A DNA stretch of 20,973 nucleotides from a virus (IMGVR_UViG_2778261696_000009:1-20973), one strand, 5' to 3'. Shown: positions 1 to 20,254, numbered from the stretch's first letter. Notes: generated from the letters alone by a model not told the origin. Numbers and translations are program-made.

Positions 1-411
1 ATGCCTGCCCCCGTCGTCCTGATCCTTGCGGCCGGGCGTGGAGAGCGCTTTCTCGCCTCCGGGGGAAATACCCATAAGTGTATCGGCTGGCGTCAGTCCC
101 CGGAGGTTGCGCCTTATCGCTGGCCATTTGAAGAAAACGGGAGAACTTTCGACCTTGCGATTGAACCGCAGATTACGACTAATGATCTGCGTCTGATGTT
201 GAGGCTGGCTCTTGCCGGCGGAGGAATAACAATTGCCACTCAGGAAACTTTCAGGCCATATATTGAAAGCGGTAAGCTTGTATCGCTGCTTGATGACTTT
301 CTTCCACAATTTCCGGGCTTCTATCTGTATTTCCCACAGCGTCGCAATATTGCACCAAAGCTCCGCGCCCTGATTGACTACGTCAAAGAATGGCGGCAGC
401 AATTGGTTTAA
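1..411 (+). CDS. LysR-family transcriptional regulator, C-terminal fragment (5' end lies outside the window)
   Basis: ORF open from the window edge to a stop at 409-411. The C-terminal stretch (ITIATQETFRPYIESGKLVSLLDDFLPQFPGFYLYFPQRRNIAPKLRALIDYV) looks like the tail of a LysR substrate-binding domain. The first ~40 codons may be frame artefact. Likely host chromosome flanking the inserted DNA. Confidence 0.55.
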   Translation: MPAPVVLILAAGRGERFLASGGNTHKCIGWRQSPEVAPYRWPFEENGRTFDLAIEPQITTNDLRLMLRLALAGGGITIATQETFRPYIESGKLVSLLDDFLPQFPGFYLYFPQRRNIAPKLRALIDYVKEWRQQLV

Positions 412-536: not shown

Positions 537-553
537 ATGGTGCGATAATAGGA
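537..553. repeat. Candidate attL core: left copy of a 17/18-nt direct repeat (ATGGTGC-GATAATAGGA) flanking the P4-like element
   Basis: ATGGTGCGATAATAGGA at 537-553 recurs as ATGGTGCCGATAATAGGA at 8653-8670, with a single 1-nt indel. One copy lies just outside the crr end and the other just outside the integrase end, as expected for att sites of an integrated element. Confidence 0.4.
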
Positions 554-612
554 ATGAATATTAAAAGTTAAGACATTGATTTATAATAGATTATTATATT
601 CAAAAAATATAA

Positions 613-633
613 CTATACACATATCTATACACA
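613..633. promoter_or_regulatory. Tandem CTATACACA(T) motifs, candidate integrase arm-type binding sites (left end)
   Basis: CTATACACAT at 613-622 and CTATACACA at 625-633. The same 10-mer occurs at 8532-8541 and inverted at 8488-8497, next to the integrase start. Four copies sit inside the element ends, between the candidate att core and crr or int. Confidence 0.35.
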
Positions 634-670
634 CTGCGCGCATCGCTTGTTTTTTACACAATTAAAAGTA

Positions 671-977
671 AGAAAAAAGTTTTTTTTCGAAAGAACTGTT
701 CACACTGTTCACCTTTCTTTTGTCTCCTTTTATTTCAGAGTGATAGGTGGTGAATAATGGGTGAAGGGTGAACATTCGATTCTTCACCTCCGGCATTCTG
801 CCGGTGTGACTCATACCGGTGATTAATCCCCCATACTGAAATCACACAGGGAGAAAAAAAAGTTTTTTTTGATTTGATTGTTCACACTGTTCACCTTTCG
901 TTTTTCTCTTTTAATTTCAGTGTGATAACGGGTGAATACACGGTGAAGGGTGAACAGTGGATTGTTCACCTTCGGGG
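671..977. repeat. crr-like cis replication region: two ~125-bp direct repeats (671-800 and 851-977), each with TGTTCACC-type iterons in both orientations
   Basis: Both units start with an A-run/T-run (AGAAAAAAGTTTTTTTT) and share near-identical sequence. Exact TGTTCACC octamers at 706-713, 888-895 and 963-970; reverse complement GGTGAACA at 767-774 and 949-956; near-iterons TGTTCACA at 697-704 and 879-886. Located directly downstream of the alpha gene, as recalled for P4 crr. Confidence 0.75.
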
Positions 978-986
978 AATTCAGGG

Positions 987-1013
987 ATAAAAAAAGACCG
1001 GCAGATGCCGGTC
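987..1013 (-). terminator. Rho-independent terminator downstream of alpha
   Basis: On the minus strand: GC-rich hairpin GACCGGC-(4-nt loop)-GCCGGTC at 996-1013, immediately followed by a run of 7 T (plus-strand A-run 989-995). It sits 17 nt after the alpha stop. Confidence 0.6.
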
Positions 1014-1029
1014 AGATGAGTCATGATGG

Positions 1030-3363
1030 TCAGGTTGTCGCAGGGTCGTCACATTTTGGCAGCCAGTCGCCGTAGCTTTCCTCTTTCAGCGTCAGGTTGG
1101 TCTGTATCCCCTGTTTGGTATGGCGCTTCTCGTAATTCAGTCCGTATTCCTTCAGCATCACCGGCAGCCCCAGCCCGAACATTTTCAGACTGAGTACATT
1201 CCGGTAGCCGTTTGCCTCCATGTAGGCCAGATAGGCGTGATAGAGGTATTTACGGTAATTGCGCGGGATGATACTGGCGTTCCCCATATACATGCCGCTG
1301 GTCTGCGGCAGGGTTTCCAGATAGCCGATAAAATCAAACGTCGGGTCGGCATCCCGTTTGATGTTCAGCGCCTCGTATGAGTTCTGCTGGGACTGAAGCA
1401 GTGACCGGGCGAGCATCGGGTCGCTGAACTTCTGCATCAGGTGACGCACGATGACCGCCAGCTCGCGGGTGATTTTGTCCTTAAGCTGCGGGTCGCGCTC
1501 CTGCGGGGCTATCTGTTCCGGGAAGTGAATAATCACCCGCCGGCGTGACACGCCGCCGCTGCGGTCGGTGAAGCGCATCGGGTTATTGTTCACGGCCAGA
1601 ATTACCGCCGGGATATGCGTGGAGTATGCATCCCGGTATTTCGGGTCAACGGACACCGCATCGCCGCCGGTGATGGCCTTGAGTCCGGCACCGTCGCCGC
1701 TCCATTTTTCCTGGTCCGGCAGGCGTATCAGTGAGAAGCCAGTTAACGCGGCACGTTCACGCGGGGATTCCAGCGTCTCGATGGTGGCCGACGTGGCGTT
1801 ATCCTCCCCGGCCAGCAGGGTGGCTATTTCGGCCATGATACTTTTGCCGCTGCCGCCGGGACCGGTCACCTCCAGAAAGAGCTGCCAGTCGTAGCGGTTT
1901 GCCAGCACCATAAACAGTGCGGCCAGAATCACGTCGCGTTTTTCCGCACGACCACCGGCGGCACGGTCAAGCCAGCGCCAGAACGCGGGGGCGTGGGTTT
2001 CCAGCGTTTCCCCTTCCACCGGCGGGGTGAAATCCACATCGCACAGGGTGCGCATCCAGTGTGACGGACTGTGCGGGTGGAACGTGCCGCTCTGCGTGTC
2101 GAGCACGCCGTTACGAAAGCCAATCAGGCGGCGGGAGGGGGCTTCCTGCTGCGGAATAATCAGCTTCAGGGTGTCCACCACGGAGGCCACCTTCCCGGAG
2201 GAGAACGGCGCGCGCAGACGCTGAAACAGCCCGGCCACATCCCGGGCAAAGTCCTGTGGCGGCAGCACCTTCCAGACACCATTTTCATAGCGGGACAGAA
2301 GCTGGCCGTTGGCATCGACCGCGAGCGCCTCGCCGTAATGCTCATAGATACGCATGGCCTTTTCGCTGGTACTCATGGCGGAAAACTCCGCTTCGCTCAT
2401 GGTGTCGAACGGGCTTTCAGCCGGTGGCCGGATGGCATCATAAATGGCCTTACGGGTGGCTTCCCCGCCGTACTGCGTGAAGGCATCATTCCAGTCACCG
2501 AAGACCGGCGGCAGGGCAACAACACCTTCACACGCATCTGCGGCTGCGGCGGCTTTTGTCTGGCCGTCACCGCTGAGGTCACGGTCAGCAGCAAGGACAA
2601 TCTGACAGGCCGGATGCTTCTGCCGGGCAAGGCTGGCCAGAGAAAGGAGGTTCACGGAAGAAAGCGCCACCATCACCGTTTCACCGGTCAGGTGATGCAC
2701 GGTAAGTGCGGTCGCGTATCCCTCCGCTATCCACAGACGTTTTCCGGCCTGATTCTGTCCTTCAAGGGTGTGACAGGTGCCCCTGACCTGTCCGCCTTTC
2801 AGGGTGCGCTTACGGCCGTCAGCGCTGATTAACTGAAGGTTAACCAGTTCGCCGCTGTCGTCATACAGTGGCACCACAAGGTCACCGGCGCACCAGCTCA
2901 CGCCACCGGCTCTGTGTGTGCCGGTCAGCATCCGGCATTCCCGGCCGGGAAAACCCTTGCGGGTCAGGTAGGCGTTACCGGTTCCGGGACGGGTTTTCGC
3001 CATCAGGGTTTGTGCCAGTGCGGCGGCGTTCTTCCGGGCAGCGTCTGTTTCAGCACCGGCGGCGGCCGTCACTGCCGGGTCAGCCGGGGGCAGACAGCCG
3101 GTCACGGCAGCCACCTTTGCGGCCGCGTCGGACGGGGAAACACCAAACACCTTTTCAACCAGTTTCAGGCCGTCACCGGCACCACACTGATTGCAGTACC
3201 AGGTGCCGCGCCCCTCCCTGTCATCAAAACGGAAGCGGTCACTCCCGCCACAGACCGGACAGGGCTGATGACGGTTTTTCAGCACCTGAATCCCCAGCGC
3301 CGGGAGAATACGCGGCCAGTGGCCGAGCGCATGGCTGACGGTGGCGGTTACGTTCATTTTCAT
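1030..3363 (-). CDS. alpha: P4-type alpha protein: bifunctional DNA primase / helicase / origin-binding replication protein
   Basis: 777-aa ORF, the length recalled for P4 alpha. N-terminal zinc-binding motif (CPVCGG...CNQCG), Walker A P-loop (GPGGSGKS) mid-protein, and a C-terminal domain upstream of the TGTTCACC iterons it would bind. AAGGAG RBS 8 nt upstream of the ATG. GC-rich. Confidence 0.9.
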   Translation of the reverse strand: MKMNVTATVSHALGHWPRILPALGIQVLKNRHQPCPVCGGSDRFRFDDREGRGTWYCNQCGAGDGLKLVEKVFGVSPSDAAAKVAAVTGCLPPADPAVTAAAGAETDAARKNAAALAQTLMAKTRPGTGNAYLTRKGFPGRECRMLTGTHRAGGVSWCAGDLVVPLYDDSGELVNLQLISADGRKRTLKGGQVRGTCHTLEGQNQAGKRLWIAEGYATALTVHHLTGETVMVALSSVNLLSLASLARQKHPACQIVLAADRDLSGDGQTKAAAAADACEGVVALPPVFGDWNDAFTQYGGEATRKAIYDAIRPPAESPFDTMSEAEFSAMSTSEKAMRIYEHYGEALAVDANGQLLSRYENGVWKVLPPQDFARDVAGLFQRLRAPFSSGKVASVVDTLKLIIPQQEAPSRRLIGFRNGVLDTQSGTFHPHSPSHWMRTLCDVDFTPPVEGETLETHAPAFWRWLDRAAGGRAEKRDVILAALFMVLANRYDWQLFLEVTGPGGSGKSIMAEIATLLAGEDNATSATIETLESPRERAALTGFSLIRLPDQEKWSGDGAGLKAITGGDAVSVDPKYRDAYSTHIPAVILAVNNNPMRFTDRSGGVSRRRVIIHFPEQIAPQERDPQLKDKITRELAVIVRHLMQKFSDPMLARSLLQSQQNSYEALNIKRDADPTFDFIGYLETLPQTSGMYMGNASIIPRNYRKYLYHAYLAYMEANGYRNVLSLKMFGLGLPVMLKEYGLNYEKRHTKQGIQTNLTLKEESYGDWLPKCDDPATT

Positions 3364-3377
3364 GGTGTTGTTCTCCT

Positions 3378-3626
3378 TCAGTGCAGTACCGGCGCTTTTA
3401 TGTGACGGGCACAGAGTTCATCCATCACAACCAGCCCGAGAAAGGACAGCGACGGCGCGGCCTTCAGGGGGCCGGATTCCATTAAATCTTCCAGCAGGGC
3501 ACAGGCTATCTGACGCCCTTTTTCCTCACCGTGCTGGCGCAGATAAAAGCCCTCCAGCTCAGCGGCGATGGCCGCCTCCAGTGACTCAAGGGTGAGATGC
3601 GGGTAGCGGTGCTGACGTTCGCACAC
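3378..3626 (-). CDS. Small protein in the epsilon position, directly upstream of and co-oriented with alpha; identity unverified
   Basis: Stop lies 14 nt upstream of the alpha ATG and overlaps the alpha RBS, suggesting co-transcription. The start is uncertain: GTG at 3626 has no obvious RBS and internal ATGs exist. Called by position only. Confidence 0.35.
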
Positions 3627-3716
3627 GGTCAGCCAGGCACAGGCGACAGCGCGACGGTAAAGGGCAGCGCGTAAGACGGGCGGTACCGCGATTCACTGAC
3701 GTCAGCCTCCGGCAGT

Positions 3717-3998
3717 ATGAAACGCCCGAAAAGAATGCTTGTTACCGGATATTGTTGTCGGAGATGTAAAGGCCTTGCACTGTCAAGAACATCGCGGCGT
3801 CTGTCTCAGGAAGTCACCGAGCGTTTTTATGTGTGCACGGATCCGGGCTGTGGTCTGGTGTTTAAAACGCTTCAGACCATCAACCGCTTCATTGTCCGCC
3901 CGGTCACGCCGGACGAACTGGCAGAAAGCCTGCATGAAAAACAGGAACTGCCGCCAGTACGCTTAAAAACACAATCATATTCGCTGCGTCTGGAATGA
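3717..3998 (+). CDS. delta: Ogr/Delta-family zinc-finger late-gene transcriptional activator (single-domain)
   Basis: Cys4 pattern CRRC...(x22)...CTDPGC, with SRTSR and RFIVRP segments that align by eye with phage P2 Ogr (C..C...ARTSR...KERY.QC....C...RYIVKP). 93 aa as called; an alternative start is the ATG at 3735. Confidence 0.8.
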   Translation: MKRPKRMLVTGYCCRRCKGLALSRTSRRLSQEVTERFYVCTDPGCGLVFKTLQTINRFIVRPVTPDELAESLHEKQELPPVRLKTQSYSLRLE

Positions 3999-4071
3999 GG
4001 GCTGCCGGTTAACACCGGCCGTCGCCGCACACCGTATTTTTATTCTTCAGCATGATGAGAAAGAGATAACG

Positions 4072-4644
4072 ATGGAAAGCACAGCCTTACAGCAGGCCTT
4101 TGACACCTGTCAGAATAACAAAGCAGCATGGCTGCAACGCAAAAATGAGCTGGCAGCGGCCGAACAGGAATATCTGCGGCTTCTGTCAGGAGAAGGCAGA
4201 AACGTCAGCCGCCTGGACGAATTACGCAATATTATCGAAGTCAGAAAATGGCAGGTGAATCAGGCCGCCGGTCGTTATATTCGTTCGCATGAAGCCGTTC
4301 AGCACATCAGCATCCGCGACCGGCTGAATGATTTTATGCAGCAGCACGGCACAGCACTGGCGGCGGCACTGGCACCGGAGCTGATGGGCTACAGTGAGCT
4401 GACGGCCATTGCCCGAAACTGTGCCATACAGCGTGCCACAGATGCCCTGCGTGAAGCCCTTCTGTCCTGGCTTGCGAAGGGGGAAAAAATTAATTATTCC
4501 GCACAGGATAGCGACATTTTAACGACCATCGGATTCAGGCCTGACGCGGCTTCGGTGGATGACAGCCGTGAAAAATTCACCCCTGCGCAGAACATGATTT
4601 TTTCGCGTAAAAGTGCGCAACTGGCATCACGTCAGTCTGTGTAA
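4072..4644 (+). CDS. psu: Psu (polarity suppression protein; capsid decoration / Rho antagonist) of P4-like satellites
   Basis: 190-aa ORF, the length recalled for P4 Psu. Directly downstream of the delta-like gene as in the P4 sid-delta-psu operon (no sid here). GC-rich, helical-looking sequence. Confidence 0.8.
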   Translation: MESTALQQAFDTCQNNKAAWLQRKNELAAAEQEYLRLLSGEGRNVSRLDELRNIIEVRKWQVNQAAGRYIRSHEAVQHISIRDRLNDFMQQHGTALAAALAPELMGYSELTAIARNCAIQRATDALREALLSWLAKGEKINYSAQDSDILTTIGFRPDAASVDDSREKFTPAQNMIFSRKSAQLASRQSV

Positions 4645-4680
4645 AATTCCCCGAAAATCCGCCCGTTTTTACTGAAAAAA

Positions 4681-4710
4681 GCCATGCATCGATAAGGTGC
4701 ATGGCTTTGC
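4681..4710 (+). terminator. Possible terminator hairpin after psu
   Basis: Inverted repeat GCCATGCA-(9-nt loop)-TGCATGGC at 4681-4705, followed by TTT. Modest intrinsic-terminator features. Confidence 0.35.
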
Positions 4711-4735
4711 ATGCGTTTCCCTGCCTCATTTTCTG

Positions 4736-4763
4736 CAGACCGCGCCATTCCCGGCGCGGTCTG
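4736..4763. other. Perfect 11-bp GC-rich inverted repeat (CAGACCGCGCC / GGCGCGGTCTG) with a 6-nt loop
   Basis: Seen directly at 4736-4746 and 4753-4763. Not followed by a T-run, so not a classical terminator. Lies in the psu-cos interval, so it could be a packaging- or protein-binding element. Confidence 0.4.
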
Positions 4764-4808
4764 AGCGTGTCAGTGCAACTGCATTAAAACCGCCCCGCAA
4801 AGCGGGCG

Positions 4809-4827
4809 GGCGTGGCGGGGGGAGCAT
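4809..4827. other. Degenerate cos-like site (P2/P4 cohesive-end-like)
   Basis: GGCGTGGCGGGGGGAGCAT matches the recalled P2/P4 cohesive end GGCGAGGCGGGGAAAGCAC at most positions. It sits where cos lies in P4 (after psu) and coincides with the sharp GC-rich to AT-rich transition. Confidence 0.4.
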
Positions 4828-4902
4828 TGCGCGCTAAGGCTGATATTATAATTTTCTTTAATTCTATTTGGTATTTTGGCTTTATTCGTCAGAAGGAACG
4901 TT

Positions 4903-4937
4903 TAGAAATAGACCACTACAATGGATTGTAGCGGTCT
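4903..4937 (-). terminator. Terminator-like hairpin downstream of the int-RT-partner gene string
   Basis: 12-bp stem AGACCACTACAA / TTGTAGCGGTCT (one mismatch) with loop TGGA at 4910-4937. On the minus strand it is followed by ATTTCTAAA and begins about 10 nt after the partner-gene stop. Confidence 0.45.
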
Positions 4938-4946
4938 GCATGATAT

Positions 4947-5687
4947 CTAGCGTTGCATTTCAGTTACTATGAAATTTTCTTCTGTAATAGAATTCATTAT
5001 CTCAAAGTACAATTCTTCAGGTTGAATAAACGCCAACTCTTTGCAAAGGTTGACAATGGTATCACTATAAGTGATACCCATCCGAGGATTGAAAAGCTCA
5101 AATCTCTTGATGTTTCTTTTGTTTTTTGAGTAAAAGTTTAAAGTGAAATATATTAGCACCTGTCTAAGATCGTAAACACTAAACTTCCTATCTCCTGATT
5201 TTATTTCCACAAGAACATTTGAATAATAAATATCGCCATATGAATTATTTATTACTCCGCATCCATCGAATTGTGGAGACACTTCAATTTGGTTTTCCAT
5301 TCCATATCGAGACAAAATGTTTCTTGCTATTTCCCTTATGGCATTGTACTCAACCATGCTTAAGGGTAGCTTGAAGTTAGAACCGTAAGCGAACCGCTGT
5401 AGATATTCTTTTGTTTTTTCAAAAACAACCTGAAAATCAGCATTATGGAAGATATCATGTGCTGAAAGAATATTTCTGTCTAACGAATCATTCTGTATTG
5501 CCCTATATAAATTAAATGCGCACTCATTAACAAAGACGTTATTTGACCTATTAGCGCAGTCATCTAGAGGAGGATAAACGTCCTCGATGAGACTGCCGTT
5601 AATGATGCGTATGAAATTATTAGCATTTGGAAGCAATTGATTCCAAAATGAAGTGAATTTTCGAGAAAACGTTAATTCAGATATCAT
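4947..5687 (-). CDS. Partner protein of the reverse transcriptase (246 aa, unknown family; possible nuclease-like effector)
   Basis: AT-rich ORF whose ATG overlaps the RT stop as ATGA (5684-5687). No family recognised by eye. Contains GDIYYSNVLVEIKSG, i.e. D-x9-E-x-K in a hydrophobic beta-like context, weakly reminiscent of a PD-(D/E)xK nuclease core. Confidence 0.7.
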   Translation of the reverse strand: MISELTFSRKFTSFWNQLLPNANNFIRIINGSLIEDVYPPLDDCANRSNNVFVNECAFNLYRAIQNDSLDRNILSAHDIFHNADFQVVFEKTKEYLQRFAYGSNFKLPLSMVEYNAIREIARNILSRYGMENQIEVSPQFDGCGVINNSYGDIYYSNVLVEIKSGDRKFSVYDLRQVLIYFTLNFYSKNKRNIKRFELFNPRMGITYSDTIVNLCKELAFIQPEELYFEIMNSITEENFIVTEMQR

Positions 5688-7312
5688 AGCGCATCCTCAA
5701 GATTTCTTGCGGTATGCCTTTTACTTGCCCAATCCCTGTAAATCACCTCTACAAAGTTGAATGTTTTCTTATTATGCTCTCTCCAGTGCCGTCCTTCATC
5801 ACCTAAGATGTAACTGGAAACGATCAATAGTCTTCTCTGCAACGGATGCATTGCAGAGAAATTTTTTTTGATATCAGAAAGCCATGCGTAAGAATTAATT
5901 TTTGCCATTGACTGTGTAACTATGTTCTTGACTAAGATGCTTTCTGGATTGTTATTGTATATTTCACTAAGGATTAGGGTGGATTTTTCTGAATTTTCTT
6001 TTGAGAGCATTCGGGCTACATAGGCTAAGTTGAGCTCAGTACTCAAAATATATGAATCTTGTTTAATTAGTGCAGTTATTTTATCAAGAATAATATCTTT
6101 GGTTTCTGTGCTTAATTTTTGCCAGTTGGAGTTAGCTACTTGAATTATAGTTGTAAATATTGGATATAACTCATGCAAGTTATTAAACATTACTTTGAAA
6201 GCACTACTTATTATTTCATCTGATGTTGCTGAGAATGCCTTTATCAAATGCTTGCTAAAAGATTGGTTAATTTTTGATTTTTGTAACTCACTACTCAGCA
6301 TAGCTAACAAGTCAAAATCTTTTAAAGATTCCTTTATCTCTTCATATTCCTCTATCGCATTTGCTGAGTAAGGATCGAATCTTATAGGAAGACTCATAAA
6401 TTTAGCCTTCATAGGAGATTCTTCATCTTCATCATTACCATGCAACTTAGCTTTAGTTACTGAAAGGAACTCTTCTTTAGTAACAATATTGGTTTTTTGT
6501 TTCTGTAAAGTTAGCCCTTCATTTTCCATCAGTTTTTTACTAAGCAAAGTTAAAATCTTATGAGCATCCTCTCTAGAGTTACAAAAAATAACAAAGTCGT
6601 CGACATAACGCTTATAGTTGATTCTATTCATAGACAATAATTTATCAATAGAATCTAGAGCTAGTTCTGCTAATATTCTAGAGGCAGGACATCCAACTGG
6701 TACTCCATATGATTTTGTTTCACTAAATGTCTGTAGTAATTTCTTGATTTTCCCAGAGTAATCTTTATTGGGGTCGACTCTATCTAACGCATTTTCTAAA
6801 CGGTGGTGATAAATACGCGGATAGAAATCTGCTATATCGCATGTAAGTACATACTTTATTTCATCGTTAGAACATTCAGAGATACTGTCTTCTTGATATT
6901 TTCTCCAAGAGATCTCTTTATCAAAAAGAGAACCATCAGCAAGGTTTGGTTTAAAGCGATATGAATAAACCTGCGTTTTAGTAGATCTATTCCTTTCAAT
7001 ATCATCAGCGATTTTTAAAACTAACCCAAGAAAAAAAGCATTCCAGAATGGATCAATTTGGGTCGCCCACCTGTAACCATAATAACCAATACTTGAAAAG
7101 CTATTAATTATGTTTGGTGGAATCTCGATCCTTTTATTTTCAAAGTCATTAAATGTTTGCATTAATGCAGTTTTTACTTTCTCCTTATCATCTTCAAATA
7201 ACCGACTTTCAAATGGGTAAGGGAAAATATCTGTATCGCCGTGCTTTATAATATTTTCCAATGCAAGCTCAAAGCAATTTTCTAGTTTACTACTATCAAA
7301 CTCGTTACTCAT
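5684..7312 (-). CDS. Reverse transcriptase (Abi/DRT-like defence-associated RT: N-terminal RT domain plus ~250-aa C-terminal helical domain)
   Basis: RT palm motifs in canonical order: LTCDIADFYPRI (motif A-like), GVPVGCPASRILAELAL (motif B-like), YKRYVDDFVIF (motif C, YxDD box). The C-terminal half has no RT motifs and contains GRHWREH (R-x4-H). The ATG overlaps the integrase stop (AATGAGTAA) with AAGGAG 7 nt upstream. AT-rich. Confidence 0.85.
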   Translation of the reverse strand: MSNEFDSSKLENCFELALENIIKHGDTDIFPYPFESRLFEDDKEKVKTALMQTFNDFENKRIEIPPNIINSFSSIGYYGYRWATQIDPFWNAFFLGLVLKIADDIERNRSTKTQVYSYRFKPNLADGSLFDKEISWRKYQEDSISECSNDEIKYVLTCDIADFYPRIYHHRLENALDRVDPNKDYSGKIKKLLQTFSETKSYGVPVGCPASRILAELALDSIDKLLSMNRINYKRYVDDFVIFCNSREDAHKILTLLSKKLMENEGLTLQKQKTNIVTKEEFLSVTKAKLHGNDEDEESPMKAKFMSLPIRFDPYSANAIEEYEEIKESLKDFDLLAMLSSELQKSKINQSFSKHLIKAFSATSDEIISSAFKVMFNNLHELYPIFTTIIQVANSNWQKLSTETKDIILDKITALIKQDSYILSTELNLAYVARMLSKENSEKSTLILSEIYNNNPESILVKNIVTQSMAKINSYAWLSDIKKNFSAMHPLQRRLLIVSSYILGDEGRHWREHNKKTFNFVEVIYRDWASKRHTARNLEDAL

Positions 7313-8489
7313 TCACATTCTCCTTAATAAAAATATAATCTGAATACCACTGCATCATATCACGGCGTTTATCAATATATTGAGCATGATTATACGTACC
7401 TCTAATATTATTCTTATCTATATGAGCAAGCTGTATTTCTATCCAAGCCGAATCATATCCTTTTTCGTGGAGGATAGTAGATAAGGAATGTCGAAATCCA
7501 TGACCAGTAAGTTTTCCACCATAACCAATACGCTTGATAACTTGGTTAATACTCGCCTCACTCATAGGCTTGTTCGGATCGTTCCGCCCCGGAAAAACAT
7601 AACTATACTTCCCTGTCATCATCTTGAGTTCATTTAGCAAATCTAACGCTTGAGTCGACAAAGGCACAAGGTGTGATCTGCGCATTTTCATCCTTTCAGC
7701 AGGAATTTCCCAAATAGCGTTATCTAAATCAAATTCTGACCATAATGCCGCACGTAATTCGATGGTTCTAACACCTGTAATCATGAGCAATTTCGTGGCA
7801 ATCAGGACAAGCCGACTTCCGGTATATCCGTTTAAGGCGCGAAGAAAATCAGGTATCTCATTAGCCTTTAAGAACGGGAAATGATTTGATTGGTGTACAT
7901 TGAGGGCGCTTGAAAGATCCGCAGCAGGGTTAAACTCAGCCCTTCCAGTAGCAATGGCATAGCGGAAAACTTCTGAGCATCGCTGCCGAACTTTGCGCAT
8001 TTTTTCTAATGCACCGCGCTTTTCGATTTTACGCAGCACATTAAGCAGTTCTAGCGGTTTAATCTCTCCCACTGGCCTTGTTCCCACATAAGGAAAAATG
8101 TCGTTCTTAAACGCTTCCATGATGTCTGATGCATATCCCGCCGACCATTTGGTAGACTTCTGTTGATGCCACTCTCTGGCTATCTTTTCGAAGGCGTTCT
8201 CTGACTCTGTTTGCAGAGCCAGCTTTTGCTCTTTTCGAACCTCACTAGGGTTCTTTCCTTCTGCCACAAGTTTTCGAGCTTCATCACGACGGGAACGAGC
8301 ATCAGCAAGAGTGATCGTTGGGTAAACACCAAGCGAGATCATTTTGGGTTTACCGGCATAGCGATAACGAAATCGCCAGCTTTTACTTCCATTTGGCTCT
8401 ACAAGTAAAGACAACCCTTGCCCATCCCCAAGTGTATAGGCTTTAGCTTCAGGTTTAGCACGGCGAATCTGCATATCATTTAGGGGCAT
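7305..8489 (-). CDS. int: P4-type tyrosine integrase (site-specific recombinase)
   Basis: 394 aa. N-terminal arm-binding-like region, then a tyrosine-recombinase catalytic region with R (LMITGVRTIELRA), HGFRHSLST (H-x-x-R) and a C-terminal RGTYNHAQY tyrosine region. Located at the element edge next to the candidate attR. Confidence 0.9.
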   Translation of the reverse strand: MPLNDMQIRRAKPEAKAYTLGDGQGLSLLVEPNGSKSWRFRYRYAGKPKMISLGVYPTITLADARSRRDEARKLVAEGKNPSEVRKEQKLALQTESENAFEKIAREWHQQKSTKWSAGYASDIMEAFKNDIFPYVGTRPVGEIKPLELLNVLRKIEKRGALEKMRKVRQRCSEVFRYAIATGRAEFNPAADLSSALNVHQSNHFPFLKANEIPDFLRALNGYTGSRLVLIATKLLMITGVRTIELRAALWSEFDLDNAIWEIPAERMKMRRSHLVPLSTQALDLLNELKMMTGKYSYVFPGRNDPNKPMSEASINQVIKRIGYGGKLTGHGFRHSLSTILHEKGYDSAWIEIQLAHIDKNNIRGTYNHAQYIDKRRDMMQWYSDYIFIKENVNE

Positions 8490-8541
8490 GTGTATAGAAT
8501 TCCAAAATCGAACAGGAACATATACATAATCCTATACACAT
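8488..8541. promoter_or_regulatory. Int-proximal CTATACACAT motifs (one inverted copy overlapping the int start, one direct copy), candidate arm-type sites and int promoter region
   Basis: ATGTGTATAG at 8488-8497 is the reverse complement of CTATACACAT; a direct copy is at 8532-8541 and a related ACATATACATA at 8519-8529. Same motif as at 613-633. Confidence 0.35.
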
Positions 8542-8652
8542 TTAGTACTGGATTCTACTGGAAAGTTATGGACTAATACGAACAGTAAAAACAAAAAATC
8601 TTTTATAAAACAGTGCGGTTATGGATAAATACGGATGTTTGAAGAAGTGGAG

Positions 8653-8670
8653 ATGGTGCCGATAATAGGA
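8653..8670. repeat. Candidate attR core: right copy of the 17/18-nt direct repeat
   Basis: ATGGTGCCGATAATAGGA at 8653-8670 versus ATGGTGCGATAATAGGA at 537-553. It lies ~165 bp beyond the int start. Confidence 0.4.
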
Positions 8671-8727
8671 GTAAAACACTCGATTAATCTCGTGTTAATG
8701 CCATCACCTACGACCATTACTAATTGA

Positions 8728-10092
8728 TTGAATCTTATAGAAAAATCATCATTTTCTATGCGTCACAATCAATTTTCACATTACAAACGCTCCGACACTT
8801 TAGCCGGAGATTTTATGAGATACAAGCCTAACCAATACTTAATCTGTGATTCTTACGGTAACTACTATTTAAGGATCACGCTGCCTGTGTATATGCAGCC
8901 CTTTTTTGAAGGAAAAAGGACGTTTGTCAGAAGTCTACACACAAGTAATCTTCGTGTTGCACGTAGAAAGCGTGATCAGATTGCAGATGAATACCATTGC
9001 TTACGGGAGAGTGTTGCCCCTGTAAACAGCACAATAGAAAACACGCTGGAACTGTTACGCAGTAAGGCTAAATACGCCAAAACAGCTACCAGAGTGCAAG
9101 ATACAGCGTCTTCGTGTCCGTCATTGCTTAAAATTCTTGAAATCTACCTGACAATTAACAGCACGAAGAAGAAGCCAGCCACTTTAGCTAAGGCAAGAAA
9201 AGCGGTAGAGATGTTTCTCTCCTACCGTAAAAAGCCTGATATTGCATTGCAAGATGTAAGCCGCACCACTGTTACAGGCTGGATTGAACACATGCAAAAA
9301 ACTCTTTCACAACAATCAATTGCAAATTATATCAGTCCAATGGCCCAGCTATGGGAATTAGCTTCATCACGTTACCACGATGCGCCAGAAAGGGCGCTCT
9401 CCCCCTGGCGAGGGCATAGGCTTGATGTGGCACAAAGTAGAGAGAGCTACGAGGCATTTTCTAACAAAGAGCTATTGCAGGTGTTGCAAGTATTTTCCGG
9501 TAATTCAGCAGAAAACAAAGAAATGACGGCTTTGTGTCTTATCGGTTTATATACAGGTATGCGGATCAATGAGATAGCAAGTCTCACAATAGACGATGTG
9601 AAAGAGATCGAAGGTGTGCTGTGTTTTGAAATCACACAGGGAAAGACGAAAGCTGCGGCACGTGTTGTGCCTGTGCATAACCTTATCACTCCGTTGGTGT
9701 TGTCGCTGCGTGAAAAGCCTCACAATGGCTTTTTGTTCTATCACGCCAGCATTACAGAACGTGCTGACGGTAAACGCTCTACGTGGCATACACAACGATT
9801 TACAAGAGCTAAACGAAAGGCTTTAGGGGAAAAGGGAACAGAAAGGAAAGTGTTTCATTCTCTGAGACACGGAGTAGCACAGCTTCTTGATCGAAATCAA
9901 ATTCCAGAAGACAGGATCGCCCTTCTCCTGGGCCATACACGCGGCAATACAGAAACATTCCGCACATATAGCAAAAATGCAGCTTCTCCAATAGAGCTTA
10001 AAAAATATATTGAGCTTTTACGCTACCCTGAAATAGAGAAAGGCTTATCAATCAATAAAAAATCAAATTTAAGGCGTAAAACAACGCTATAG
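8728..10092 (+). CDS. Second tyrosine recombinase / phage-type integrase (likely true start at ATG 8815)
   Basis: C-terminal catalytic signatures: YTGMRINEIASL (R), HSLRHGVAQLL (H-x-x-R), LLGHTRG and FRTYSK (Tyr). The in-frame ATG at 8815 has a GGAG RBS 5 nt upstream. Divergent from the P4-type int. Confidence 0.8.
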   Translation: MNLIEKSSFSMRHNQFSHYKRSDTLAGDFMRYKPNQYLICDSYGNYYLRITLPVYMQPFFEGKRTFVRSLHTSNLRVARRKRDQIADEYHCLRESVAPVNSTIENTLELLRSKAKYAKTATRVQDTASSCPSLLKILEIYLTINSTKKKPATLAKARKAVEMFLSYRKKPDIALQDVSRTTVTGWIEHMQKTLSQQSIANYISPMAQLWELASSRYHDAPERALSPWRGHRLDVAQSRESYEAFSNKELLQVLQVFSGNSAENKEMTALCLIGLYTGMRINEIASLTIDDVKEIEGVLCFEITQGKTKAAARVVPVHNLITPLVLSLREKPHNGFLFYHASITERADGKRSTWHTQRFTRAKRKALGEKGTERKVFHSLRHGVAQLLDRNQIPEDRIALLLGHTRGNTETFRTYSKNAASPIELKKYIELLRYPEIEKGLSINKKSNLRRKTTL

Positions 10093-10172
10093 ACGTAATA
10101 AAGAGGCTTCAATATAGACTGATGCCTCTTTTATGATTATCTCGTTACAGAGCGTTTCATAGGCGTTTAAGG

Positions 10173-10850
10173 CTATTGTTTAAATACTGGCGTTACAACG
10201 TCTTGCCCTGGGCTTTTTTGATTTTTCTGTTCTGTTGTATTTACCTGCATTTTAACCTGGCCTCCTACAGATTTATTTGGTGCTGTTTTTACCGCAATTG
10301 CGCTTGTAGTTGCTTTAGAGACAAGACGGATTTGCTCAAAATCAAGAGTAAACAATAGGCTTTCGCTTGCTTCTTCTTCGTAAGACATGCCAACTAACAC
10401 AACGTTGTCATAATTTTTTAACTCAGTGACAAGTAGGAAAGGTTGGCGACTGTCCATCAACTGATTTAGGTATTCAAGCATAAGCATACGTCGATTGCCG
10501 TTAATTCCAGCATTCTTAATCATATCAGGATTGAGCTTCAATACGGTTTCAGAGATACGCCCTTGTAATGTGAACTTGTTATTCCGTATTTGAACATGAT
10601 CACTAACTTCTGATCCTGATTCGACGGCATAGCTTGTAACGTCCGCATTTCTGCTAACTTTCGTCGATTCCACGCTATCAAATGATAATGCCTGGTAGTC
10701 ATTGTAAGCAGCATTTGCACCACTGCCGAGATTAGAGGTAATGATCGCAAAGCCGTTACCCCCTTTGGTTGTTCTACCGTTGCTATCGTTGCTTGTGCTG
10801 TTGATTTTCGCCTCAGTCGGGCGACCAATGGTTAACGGACCCATTGCCAT
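10173..10850 (-). CDS. Hypothetical protein (225 aa), last gene of the structural-looking operon
   Basis: ORF with AAGGA RBS upstream of the ATG at 10850; Ser/Thr/Asn/Gly-rich N-terminus. Follows the 613-aa gene on the same strand. Function not recognisable by eye. Confidence 0.5.
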   Translation of the reverse strand: MAMGPLTIGRPTEAKINSTSNDSNGRTTKGGNGFAIITSNLGSGANAAYNDYQALSFDSVESTKVSRNADVTSYAVESGSEVSDHVQIRNNKFTLQGRISETVLKLNPDMIKNAGINGNRRMLMLEYLNQLMDSRQPFLLVTELKNYDNVVLVGMSYEEEASESLLFTLDFEQIRLVSKATTSAIAVKTAPNKSVGGQVKMQVNTTEQKNQKSPGQDVVTPVFKQ

Positions 10851-19696: not shown

Positions 19697-20254
19697 ATGA
19701 AAATGGCTAATATTGGATACATTAGGGTATCGACTGTGCAACAAAACACAGACCGTCAATTAGCTGGAGTAACTCTTGATAAAGTCTTTGAAGATAAAGC
19801 GTCAGGCAAGAACACTCAGCGCCCACAGTTTGAGGCAATGATGAACTATGTGCGGGAGGGTGACGTGTTACACGTCCATAGTATTGATCGCCTTTGTCGT
19901 AATACAGCCGACCTTCTGGCAACGGTTGAGCAATTAACAGAGCGCGGCGTGTCTGTGCATTTCCATAAAGAAGACTTTAAGACAGGGAAGAACTCTCCCG
20001 CAGGGAATATGATGCTCACAGTGCTTGCAGCAGTGGCACAAATGGAACGTGAAATGATGCTTGAGCGGCAGCGTGAGGGGATCGCCGCAGCTAAGGCCGC
20101 TGGACGTATAGCAAAACGTGGTAATGGAAAAGCAATTGATCGAGCGGGAATTGTTGCCGCTCTCGCGAATGGTGGATCAATTCGGAGCGTAGCAAAAGAT
20201 TTCAGTGTCAGCACACAGACGGTGCAACGTATCAAGAAAGAGCAGGAAGCGTAA
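19697..20254 (+). CDS. Serine recombinase (resolvase / DNA invertase family)
   Basis: N-terminal IGYIRVSTVQQNTDRQ contains the catalytic Ser in the Y-x-R-V-S-T context typical of resolvase/invertases. C-terminal GGSIRSVAKDFSVSTQTVQRIKK is an HTH. ~185 aa. The more likely start is the second ATG at 19703 (AGGA RBS). Confidence 0.85.
   Translation: MKMANIGYIRVSTVQQNTDRQLAGVTLDKVFEDKASGKNTQRPQFEAMMNYVREGDVLHVHSIDRLCRNTADLLATVEQLTERGVSVHFHKEDFKTGKNSPAGNMMLTVLAAVAQMEREMMLERQREGIAAAKAAGRIAKRGNGKAIDRAGIVAALANGGSIRSVAKDFSVSTQTVQRIKKEQEA

Follow-up and report, generated by a model that had tools for sequence, protein, structure and literature searches.

The sequence considered here, a 20,973-nucleotide (nt) stretch of viral origin (IMGVR_UViG_2778261696_000009:1-20973; the window, by which the whole of this stretch is meant), is 100% identical to a chromosomal stretch of E. 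coli EC12 and of four further strains, and carries at 537–8670 an element that is very probably a P4-type satellite that entered the 3' end of the tRNA gene thrW by means of its own tyrosine integrase, with the short direct repeats at its two ends being the scars of that recombination. The end of paoD occupies window positions 1–22 and host DNA extends to 536. In L001, which comprises the window and 14 kilobases (kb) of extra flank, the annotated order is paoABCD, a yagP-like LysR pseudogene, the satellite, a second integrase belonging to a separate element (island 2), ~12 kb of mostly hypothetical, phage-like genes, tRNA-Thr, proA, and proB. The ends of the satellite, its integrase (Int), and their immediate neighbours are laid out as follows.

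73–411, plus strand: host flank, a yagP-like LysR fragment (pseudogene), from the RefSeq annotation of the identical stretch in strain EC12.
537–553, no strand: distal att junction (host flank, core, P' arm), a copy of the thrW 3' end minus one C, ATGGTGC-GATAATAGGA, read from the sequence and recurring elsewhere.
537–543, repeated at 8653–8659, no strand: putative crossover (overlap) segment; its sequence, ATGGTGC, is tRNA GCACCA plus 1 nt in reverse complement.
611–634, plus strand: P' arm, two tandem 12-nt putative arm-type repeats, AACTATACACAT and ATCTATACACAC, corresponding to the P4 arm repeats at 4151–4174.
7305–8489, minus strand: P4-type tyrosine integrase of 394 amino acids (aa), thrW-specific lineage, with the Pfam domains Arm-DNA-bind_3 (9e-28), Phage_int_M, and Phage_integrase.
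8488–8499, minus strand: P arm, inverted putative arm-type repeat TTCTATACACAT, overlapping the int start codon (8487–8489), corresponding to the P4 repeat at 3915–3926 and kept in relatives.
8518–8541, plus strand: P arm, two tandem 12-nt putative arm-type repeats, ACATATACATAA (degenerate) and TCCTATACACAT, corresponding to the P4 arm repeats at 3942–3965.
8653–8672, no strand: att junction on the proximal side (P arm, core, next element); its 20 nt, ATGGTGCCGATAATAGGAGT, are an intact copy comprising the thrW 3' end and 1 nt.
8815–10092, plus strand: integrase of island 2 (DUF6538 type), outside the satellite, from Pfam and RefSeq.

Copy 1 of the repeat, at 537–553, reads ATGGTGCGATAATAGGA, that is ATGGTGC-GATAATAGGA, and copy 2, at 8653–8670, reads ATGGTGCCGATAATAGGA, with the two identical except for a single C absent from copy 1; the att direct repeats of 17 and 18 nt that a first-pass annotation of the window had proposed at these positions are therefore upheld, with one C of difference. 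The 10-mer GATAATAGGA, common to both copies, occurs exactly twice in the window, compared with 0.02 occurrences expected from shuffles. Using ARAGORN, thrW, a tRNA-Thr(CGT) gene on the minus strand, was located at L001 35580–35655, 607 base pairs (bp) past the window's right-hand edge. On the plus strand the gene's 3' end is TGGTGCCGATAATAGGAGTCGAACC (the tRNA 3' end being ...TCCTATTATCGGCACCA), and the repeat corresponds, in reverse complement, to the final 17 nt of thrW plus one base. Copy 2 equals the thrW 3' end, TGGTGCCGATAATAGGAGT, and together with the A that follows the tRNA matches over 20 nt in all, with ATGGTGCCGATAATAGGAGT identical to the genuine thrW 3' end at L001 35579–35598. 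The ARAGORN scan of the window itself found no tRNA gene within it, in agreement with the first-pass annotation, which had seen none at either junction; the conclusion drawn there, of a target other than a tRNA 3' end and hence one unusual for P4-type integrases, proved wrong. The intact tRNA gene lies outside the window because the satellite forms part of a tandem array, with island 2 between it and thrW. The 3' end of thrW is the integration target and the integration is of the ordinary tRNA-targeted kind; as the repeat is the thrW 3' end and relatives of the integrase lie beside tRNA-Thr, the specificity is typical of P4-type integrases.

The window Int is a tyrosine recombinase with an N-terminal arm-type DNA-binding domain and is homologous to P4 Int over its full length (39% identity, E = 4e-105). 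Scanning one genome per species yielded 80 loci with relatives of this integrase, including 23 in which it is ≥84% identical, from Klebsiella, Enterobacter, Citrobacter, Cedecea, Serratia, Erwinia, and other genera. At 17 of the 23, tRNA-Thr(CGT) ends ~163 nt upstream of int, the distance at which copy 2 stands in the window, whilst five of the remaining six have a partial thrW copy at that position, indicating tandem arrays as in the window, and the sixth is a short contig that holds the tRNA 3' part and ends within the gene. The presence of these integrases directly beside tRNA-Thr(CGT) in many genera further counters the claim of a non-tRNA target. As in a P4-type module, the core is identical to a tRNA 3' end and integration restores the tRNA gene, an intact tRNA-Thr adjoining int in H3, in 2013C-4974, and in 17 further species.

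Three 800-nt junctions were built in silico and searched against 5,426 complete E. coli genomes, with exact single-piece matches taken as firm evidence. With the satellite taken out, so that the left flank runs into copy 2 and island 2, there were at least 8 exact matches (100% over 800 nt); with both elements taken out, so that it runs into intact thrW and proA, at least 12; and with island 2 taken out, so that the int end of the satellite meets thrW directly, at least 15. At ≥80% coverage, where counts may include sites with small insertions, the three junctions were found in 277, 948, and 120 genomes respectively; as many as 277 E. coli genomes have island 2 and no satellite. Natural genomes show the thrW site in each of its four occupancy states, with junctions exactly at the repeat. 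In the empty-site genomes the left host flank runs straight into thrW, and removal of 554–8670 in silico gives the sequence of natural genomes base for base. Alignment to an uninterrupted locus, the comparison suggested by the first-pass annotation, places the junctions exactly at the repeat and bears out its statement that the repeats bracket the crr-to-int satellite exactly. As expected of a P4-type module, the direct repeats therefore mark the exact ends that separate occupied from empty sites.

Two strains that have the satellite without island 2 were looked at closely. In H3 it lies between an identical, gapped copy 1 and thrW itself, and in 2013C-4974 (NZ_CP027587) a full-length satellite of 11.3 kb lies directly at thrW. 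The distal junction of 2013C-4974 (L003 3085–3111) lacks 22 nt (AACTCTTTGATTTTAATGGTGC), apparently lost between the short repeats ATGGGGT and ATGGTGC; this deletion takes out ATGGTGC, the putative crossover segment, and would be another way to disable the distal att.

The mechanism that would best explain this arrangement is that the satellite's own Int recombined into the 3' end of thrW, tRNA-Thr(CGT), leaving beside int a proximal scar in the form of an intact copy (the last 19 nt of the tRNA and 1 nt) and beside crr a distal scar in the form of the displaced copy. The unrelated island 2, with its own integrase, would have entered the same site between the satellite and thrW, producing the tandem array. 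In this scheme the N-terminal arm-binding domain of Int would bind the CTATACACA 12-mers, two in tandem in each arm and one inverted at the start of int, and strand exchange would occur within ATGGTGC, corresponding to GCACCA of the tRNA and 1 nt.

The 10-mer CTATACACAT occurs exactly at 613–622 (plus), 8488–8497 (minus), and 8532–8541 (plus). Allowing one mismatch gives five matches against 1.0 expected, with none of 100 shuffles reaching five. The first-pass annotation had listed two copies of this 10-mer on the left and two on the right; three of these are exact, but the second left copy, at 625–634, is CTATACACAC, a match of only 9/10. It had also overlooked a fifth, degenerate copy, ACATATACATAA at 8518–8529, standing in tandem 12 nt ahead of the copy at 8530–8541, and each arm has a tandem pair with a 12-nt period. 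The GenBank record of P4 annotates 12-nt ‘attP arm sequence repeats’, one at the start of int and a tandem pair in each arm, and the repeats of the window follow this P4 arrangement on both P (two tandem and one inverted) and P' (two tandem), with the P-arm pair ending 111 nt from the core, compared with 112 nt in P4, and the P'-arm pair starting ~58–60 nt from the core, compared with 54 nt in P4. In relatives the P' sequence between core and motif diverges freely and the tandem pair is retained, its offset being identical in 20/20 viral-contig loci bearing the CTATACACA-type motif. A second motif family, GATACCCCCAAAAGTACCCCCA, close to GGGGGCAT of P4, takes the same place in other satellites at thrW. 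Wherever an element is complete, its P and P' arms agree in motif type (5 A-A, 3 B-B, 0 mixed), and the integrases of CTATACACA elements are 87–93% identical to the window Int, compared with ~64% for those of the other motif type. P4 homology resumes at 674, just past the P' arm, and the motifs are therefore inherited together with int rather than together with the replication module.

That the CTATACACA motifs are arm-type sites to which Int would bind, as the first-pass annotation had suggested, is well supported by the P4 architecture, the fixed offset in diverged relatives, and the covariation with integrase lineage. It could instead be supposed that these repeats are bound by a protein other than Int (alpha, Vis, or a host factor) or act as promoter elements, and the copy over the int start codon could be purely regulatory, whilst a weak match at 8430–8439 is accounted for by coding constraint (AYTL codons). 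However, the layout and spacing of the repeats copy those of the annotated P4 arm repeats, the motif differs from that of P4 though crr and alpha are 98% identical to P4, the type of motif covaries with the lineage of the integrase and is the same on both arms of an element, and the integrase has an arm-binding domain, all of which makes such a role unlikely. The match at 8430–8439 (CTATACACTT), a weak sixth one, was considered and rejected as an arm site; it encodes the conserved AYTL of the integrase and varies among relatives by synonymous or conservative codons. In P4, Int acts as a repressor of int by binding close to where transcription of that gene begins (Piazzolla et al. 2006, described in PMC2951348), and by analogy the repeat over the int start codon may let the window Int do the same.

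A second lineage of P4-type satellites targeting thrW (L086, L089, L090, L092, and ~30 other viral-contig loci) is distinguished by the motif GATACCCCCAAAAGTACCCCCA and by an integrase ~64% identical to that of the window, and has the same core, usually gapped.

The C absent from copy 1 is absent at other loci also. A gapped core beside a P' arm is seen in seven distal copies from annotated genomes and genome-scan loci of several genera (the window, H3, L005, L012, L014, L023, and L064), and the distal copy of L011 lacks the same base and has a further substitution. Gapped distal copies in Enterobacter, Cedecea, Citrobacter, and other genera have different host flanks and diverged arms. Scanning viral contigs for the gapped core followed by A returned 60 loci, ~55 of which adjoin a P' arm of either motif type, the gap being common to two integrase lineages with different arm motifs; copies adjoining a real tRNA body are all ungapped. 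At L097, where two satellites stand in tandem, their mutual junction (P arm, gapped core, P' arm) has the gap and the thrW copy is intact. The missing base of the distal copy was probably inherited from attP, which, as reconstructed from the ends of the satellite, would read ...GGAGATGGTGC-GATAATAGGAATG.... Strand exchange most likely takes place within the 7 bp ATGGTGC, because the usual 1-nt gap of attP, just inside the segment, ends up only in the distal copy; both exchanges would thus fall to the tRNA-terminal side of the gap. Overlap regions of tyrosine recombinases usually measure 7 bp, and on this reading GATAATAGGA would serve as a core-type half-site.

Several observations weigh against this account. 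In a counter-search, 10 viral-contig loci were found to have an ungapped core beside a P' arm. The gapped copy of L016 (Buttiauxella brennerae, 9780–9835) lies not beside a P' arm but beside a degenerate tRNA 3' half. A free or excised attP of the satellite, or one in a plasmid or an identical tandem, was not found with a synthetic P arm-core-P' arm query in the phage collection and the E. coli genomes, with the former matched only by the P4 crr part and the latter giving 0 genomes at ≥80% query coverage. A promoter scan around both junctions detected no int promoter above shuffle background, autoregulation being drawn from the analogy with P4. Finally, with regard to the order in which the satellite and island 2 arrived, both orders yield the observed sequence, and reverse arrays exist too. 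A terminator scan around both junctions found only the alpha terminator, at 996–1013.

Following the 10 ungapped cases, the missing C was dropped as a universal feature of attP and is described here as predominant, the gap being common (~85%) and not obligatory. At three of the 10, the thrW-proximal end of island 2 lies on the other side of the core and the satellite adjoins thrW, the reverse of the window order; in at least these three, later recombination by island 2 could have restored the base. The reverse order (thrW-proximal end of island 2, core, P' arm of the satellite) is seen at L149, L154, L155, and L092, with three of these four ungapped at that point. The L016 sequence is an int-proximal, degenerate thrW 3' half that starts from the anticodon loop and has three substitutions and a 1-nt gap, with no intact tRNA within 10 kb, and does not fit a rule by which the gap is always beside a P' arm.

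The ungapped copies beside P' arms at these 10 loci, the different, 22-nt deletion at the same junction of 2013C-4974, and the gapped copy in the decaying tRNA half of L016 could also be taken to mean that the C missing from copy 1 is a random post-integration mutation, uninformative on the crossover point. In contrast, the same gap beside P' arms recurs across genera with different flanks and diverged arms, is present in 55 viral-contig loci of two integrase lineages, and is found at tandem-satellite junctions, where the earlier copy must have been an intact tRNA end, and a random origin is accordingly thought improbable. The further suggestion that the 1-nt gap of attP is a maintained feature of thrW-targeting P4-type satellites, confining exchange to the 7 bp GCACCA+1, rather than a neutral founder variant, is possible but on present evidence doubtful. 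If the gap is maintained, the distal core half-site would be shifted by one base, which could bias the reaction, for instance against excision or against the re-use of the distal copy by later arrivals.

Island 2 extends from 8673 past the end of the window to thrW (L001 35579), ~12.9 kb, and is bounded by the 20-nt thrW repeat, with the proximal junction of the satellite (8653–8672) doubling as its distal att. Besides its integrase, it encodes a Dit-like tail protein (10173–10850), a serine resolvase (19697–20254), and several open reading frames of 100–613 aa with no Pfam or PADLOC match; a PADLOC search of island 2 returned no matches. The dual role of copy 2, and the fact that island 2, where it occurs alone, leaves an intact copy in the place of copy 1, raise the question of whether the repeats belong only to island 2 or are left over from it, with the satellite ending elsewhere and its bracketing coincidental. 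This is very improbable, as in both H3 and 2013C-4974, which lack island 2, the int side of the satellite is bounded by thrW itself, with the crr side bounded by the identical gapped copy in H3 and by the copy truncated by the 22-nt deletion in 2013C-4974, and as in silico removal of 554–8670 reproduces natural genomes. A non-tRNA chromosomal target of unusual P4-type specificity, as read by the first-pass annotation from the lack of a tRNA gene in the 20,973-nt window and from a left junction abutting the LysR pseudogene, deserves practically no credence, given that the repeat is the last 17–19 nt of thrW plus 1 nt, that empty-site genomes have intact thrW exactly at the junction, and that as many as 120 E. 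coli genomes have the same int end immediately next to thrW (a count that may include sites with small insertions), as 17 other species have it next to tRNA-Thr.

CP4-6 of E. coli K-12, with the integrase IntF, occupies the same site between thrW and yagP/paoD, and at its distal att, too, part of thrW is copied next to that host flank. In contrast to the satellite, its repeat is 47–48 nt long and reaches the anticodon loop, which indicates a different crossover point, and IntF is unrelated to the satellite's Int. The identification of island 2 as CP4-6 was rejected, with IntF only 24% identical to the island 2 integrase, over the catalytic domain only, and with repeats of 20 nt compared with 47–48 nt. 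As island 2 differs from CP4-6 in both integrase and repeat length, at least three kinds of integrase use thrW in E. coli. Partial thrW copies of 45–48 nt, from the anticodon loop to the 3' end, also flank other elements of this site, standing upstream of int in L019, L020, L023, and L024, and in K-12 a partial thrW copy from the anticodon loop likewise flanks CP4-6 (L085 4720–4770); a further integrase class evidently crosses over in the thrW anticodon loop.

Within its ends, the satellite contains the following.

673–975, plus strand: crr, two 121-nt direct repeats (673–793 and 855–975), from a repeat search and the P4 annotation, with P4 homology from 674.
1030–3363, minus strand: alpha primase-helicase, 777 aa, with the Pfam domains Zn_Ribbon_Prim, Toprim, D5_N, and Pox_D5, and 98% nucleotide identity to P4 alpha.
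3378–3692, minus strand: orf106 homologue (DUF5375), from Pfam.
3681–3998, plus strand: delta fragment with its N-terminus lost, Pfam Ogr_Delta, a pseudogene in RefSeq.
4072–4644, plus strand: psu, Pfam Psu (E = 1e-88), with P4 homology stopping at 4808, the right cos end of P4.
4947–7312, minus strand: DRT type 8 (DRT8) cargo, from PADLOC (Drt8, E = 5e-166; RTasPDDEXK, E = 6e-69).

By blastn, positions 674–3685 are 98% identical to P4 (NC_001609) 4291–7291, covering crr, alpha, and orf106, and positions 3684–4808 are 99% identical to P4 10500–11624, covering the C-terminal part of delta, psu, and the right cos end. The intervening P4 sequence, 7292–10499, is missing from the window copy, a 3.2-kb deletion of orf151, epsilon, cI, vis, ori, sid, and the N-terminus of delta with its junction at window 3684/3685, where P4 7291 is joined to P4 10500. 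The parts not derived from P4 are 554–673, which is the P' arm, and 4809–8652, which holds cargo, int, and the P arm. The cargo, consisting of a PD-(D/E)XK partner (4947–5687, 246 aa) and the Drt8 reverse transcriptase (5684–7312, 542 aa), lies in the hotspot between psu/cos and int, in place of gop, beta, and cII of P4.

The core gene set of P4-like satellites comprises int, psu, delta, sid, alpA/vis, epsilon, and alpha (PMC8628076). The window retains int, psu, alpha, and the delta fragment in P4 order, with sid, vis, epsilon, cI, and ori deleted, and its satellite is a degraded P4-like member by descent (98–99% identity to P4), not a complete satellite. The excisionase Vis is not present in the window copy, the vis region (P4 8764–9030) falling inside the 3.2-kb deletion, whilst a vis homologue is kept in the full-length relative of strain 2013C-4974 (L003). 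Because vis, cI, ori, sid, and epsilon are lost, the window copy is probably fixed in place and neither excises nor replicates. The element is thus P4 itself, its integration module exchanged for one specific to thrW, with DRT8 as cargo and 3.2 kb deleted; it stands in a tandem array at a well-known tRNA hotspot and is ordinary. At L010, a second P arm and int start are seen ~5 kb further downstream (+5021 to +5180, counted from int), with an aberrant core, GTTTTATCGGCACCA, in front of them; the arrangement resembles a tandem or rearranged pair of satellites whose junction is damaged.

The likeness to P4 takes in crr, alpha, and orf106 (98% identical), delta', psu, and cos (99%), the domain architecture of the integrase, an att core formed by a tRNA 3' end with int adjoining the tRNA-proximal junction, and arm repeats equal in number and relative orientation and nearly equal in spacing. 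The two differ in target (leuX for P4, thrW for the window satellite), in arm motif (TTGGGGGCAT in P4, CTATACACAT in the window), in core (a perfect 20 bp in P4, a 1-nt gap in the reconstructed attP of the window satellite), and in cargo (gop, beta, and cII in P4, DRT8 in the window satellite). The target tRNA of the retronphage phiR73, selC, also differs from thrW, with the clade at ~60% integrase identity located largely at tRNA-Sec, and also at tRNA-Gly(CCC), Phe, and Arg. Compared by description only, the reverse transcriptase of phiR73 (cited in PMC9122126) is that of a retron and not DRT8.

As far as the available text of the published surveys goes, P4-like satellites have variable defence cargo in a hotspot between psu/cos and int (Rousset et al. 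[quoted passage not shown] The window satellite fits this picture and is no departure from it. Both surveys delimit elements by genes, and the att core and arm sites at thrW are not described in the text consulted; searching the literature for thrW in connection with P4-like elements turned up nothing beyond general mentions of CP4-6. What is new is modest, namely the base-precise core and arm sites of the thrW module, the covariation of motif and integrase, and the predominant 1-nt gap of attP.

The value of these results is mainly corrective, in that the apparent non-tRNA target vanishes once the genomic context is read. A tRNA hotspot can hold several elements in tandem, and the att scar of one of them may then be a piece of tRNA sequence without a tRNA gene in its vicinity. 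For a P4 integration module that is common, specific to thrW, and accompanied by DRT8 defence cargo, base-precise ends, a core, and arm sites help to delimit such satellites in genomes and to design excision and integration experiments.

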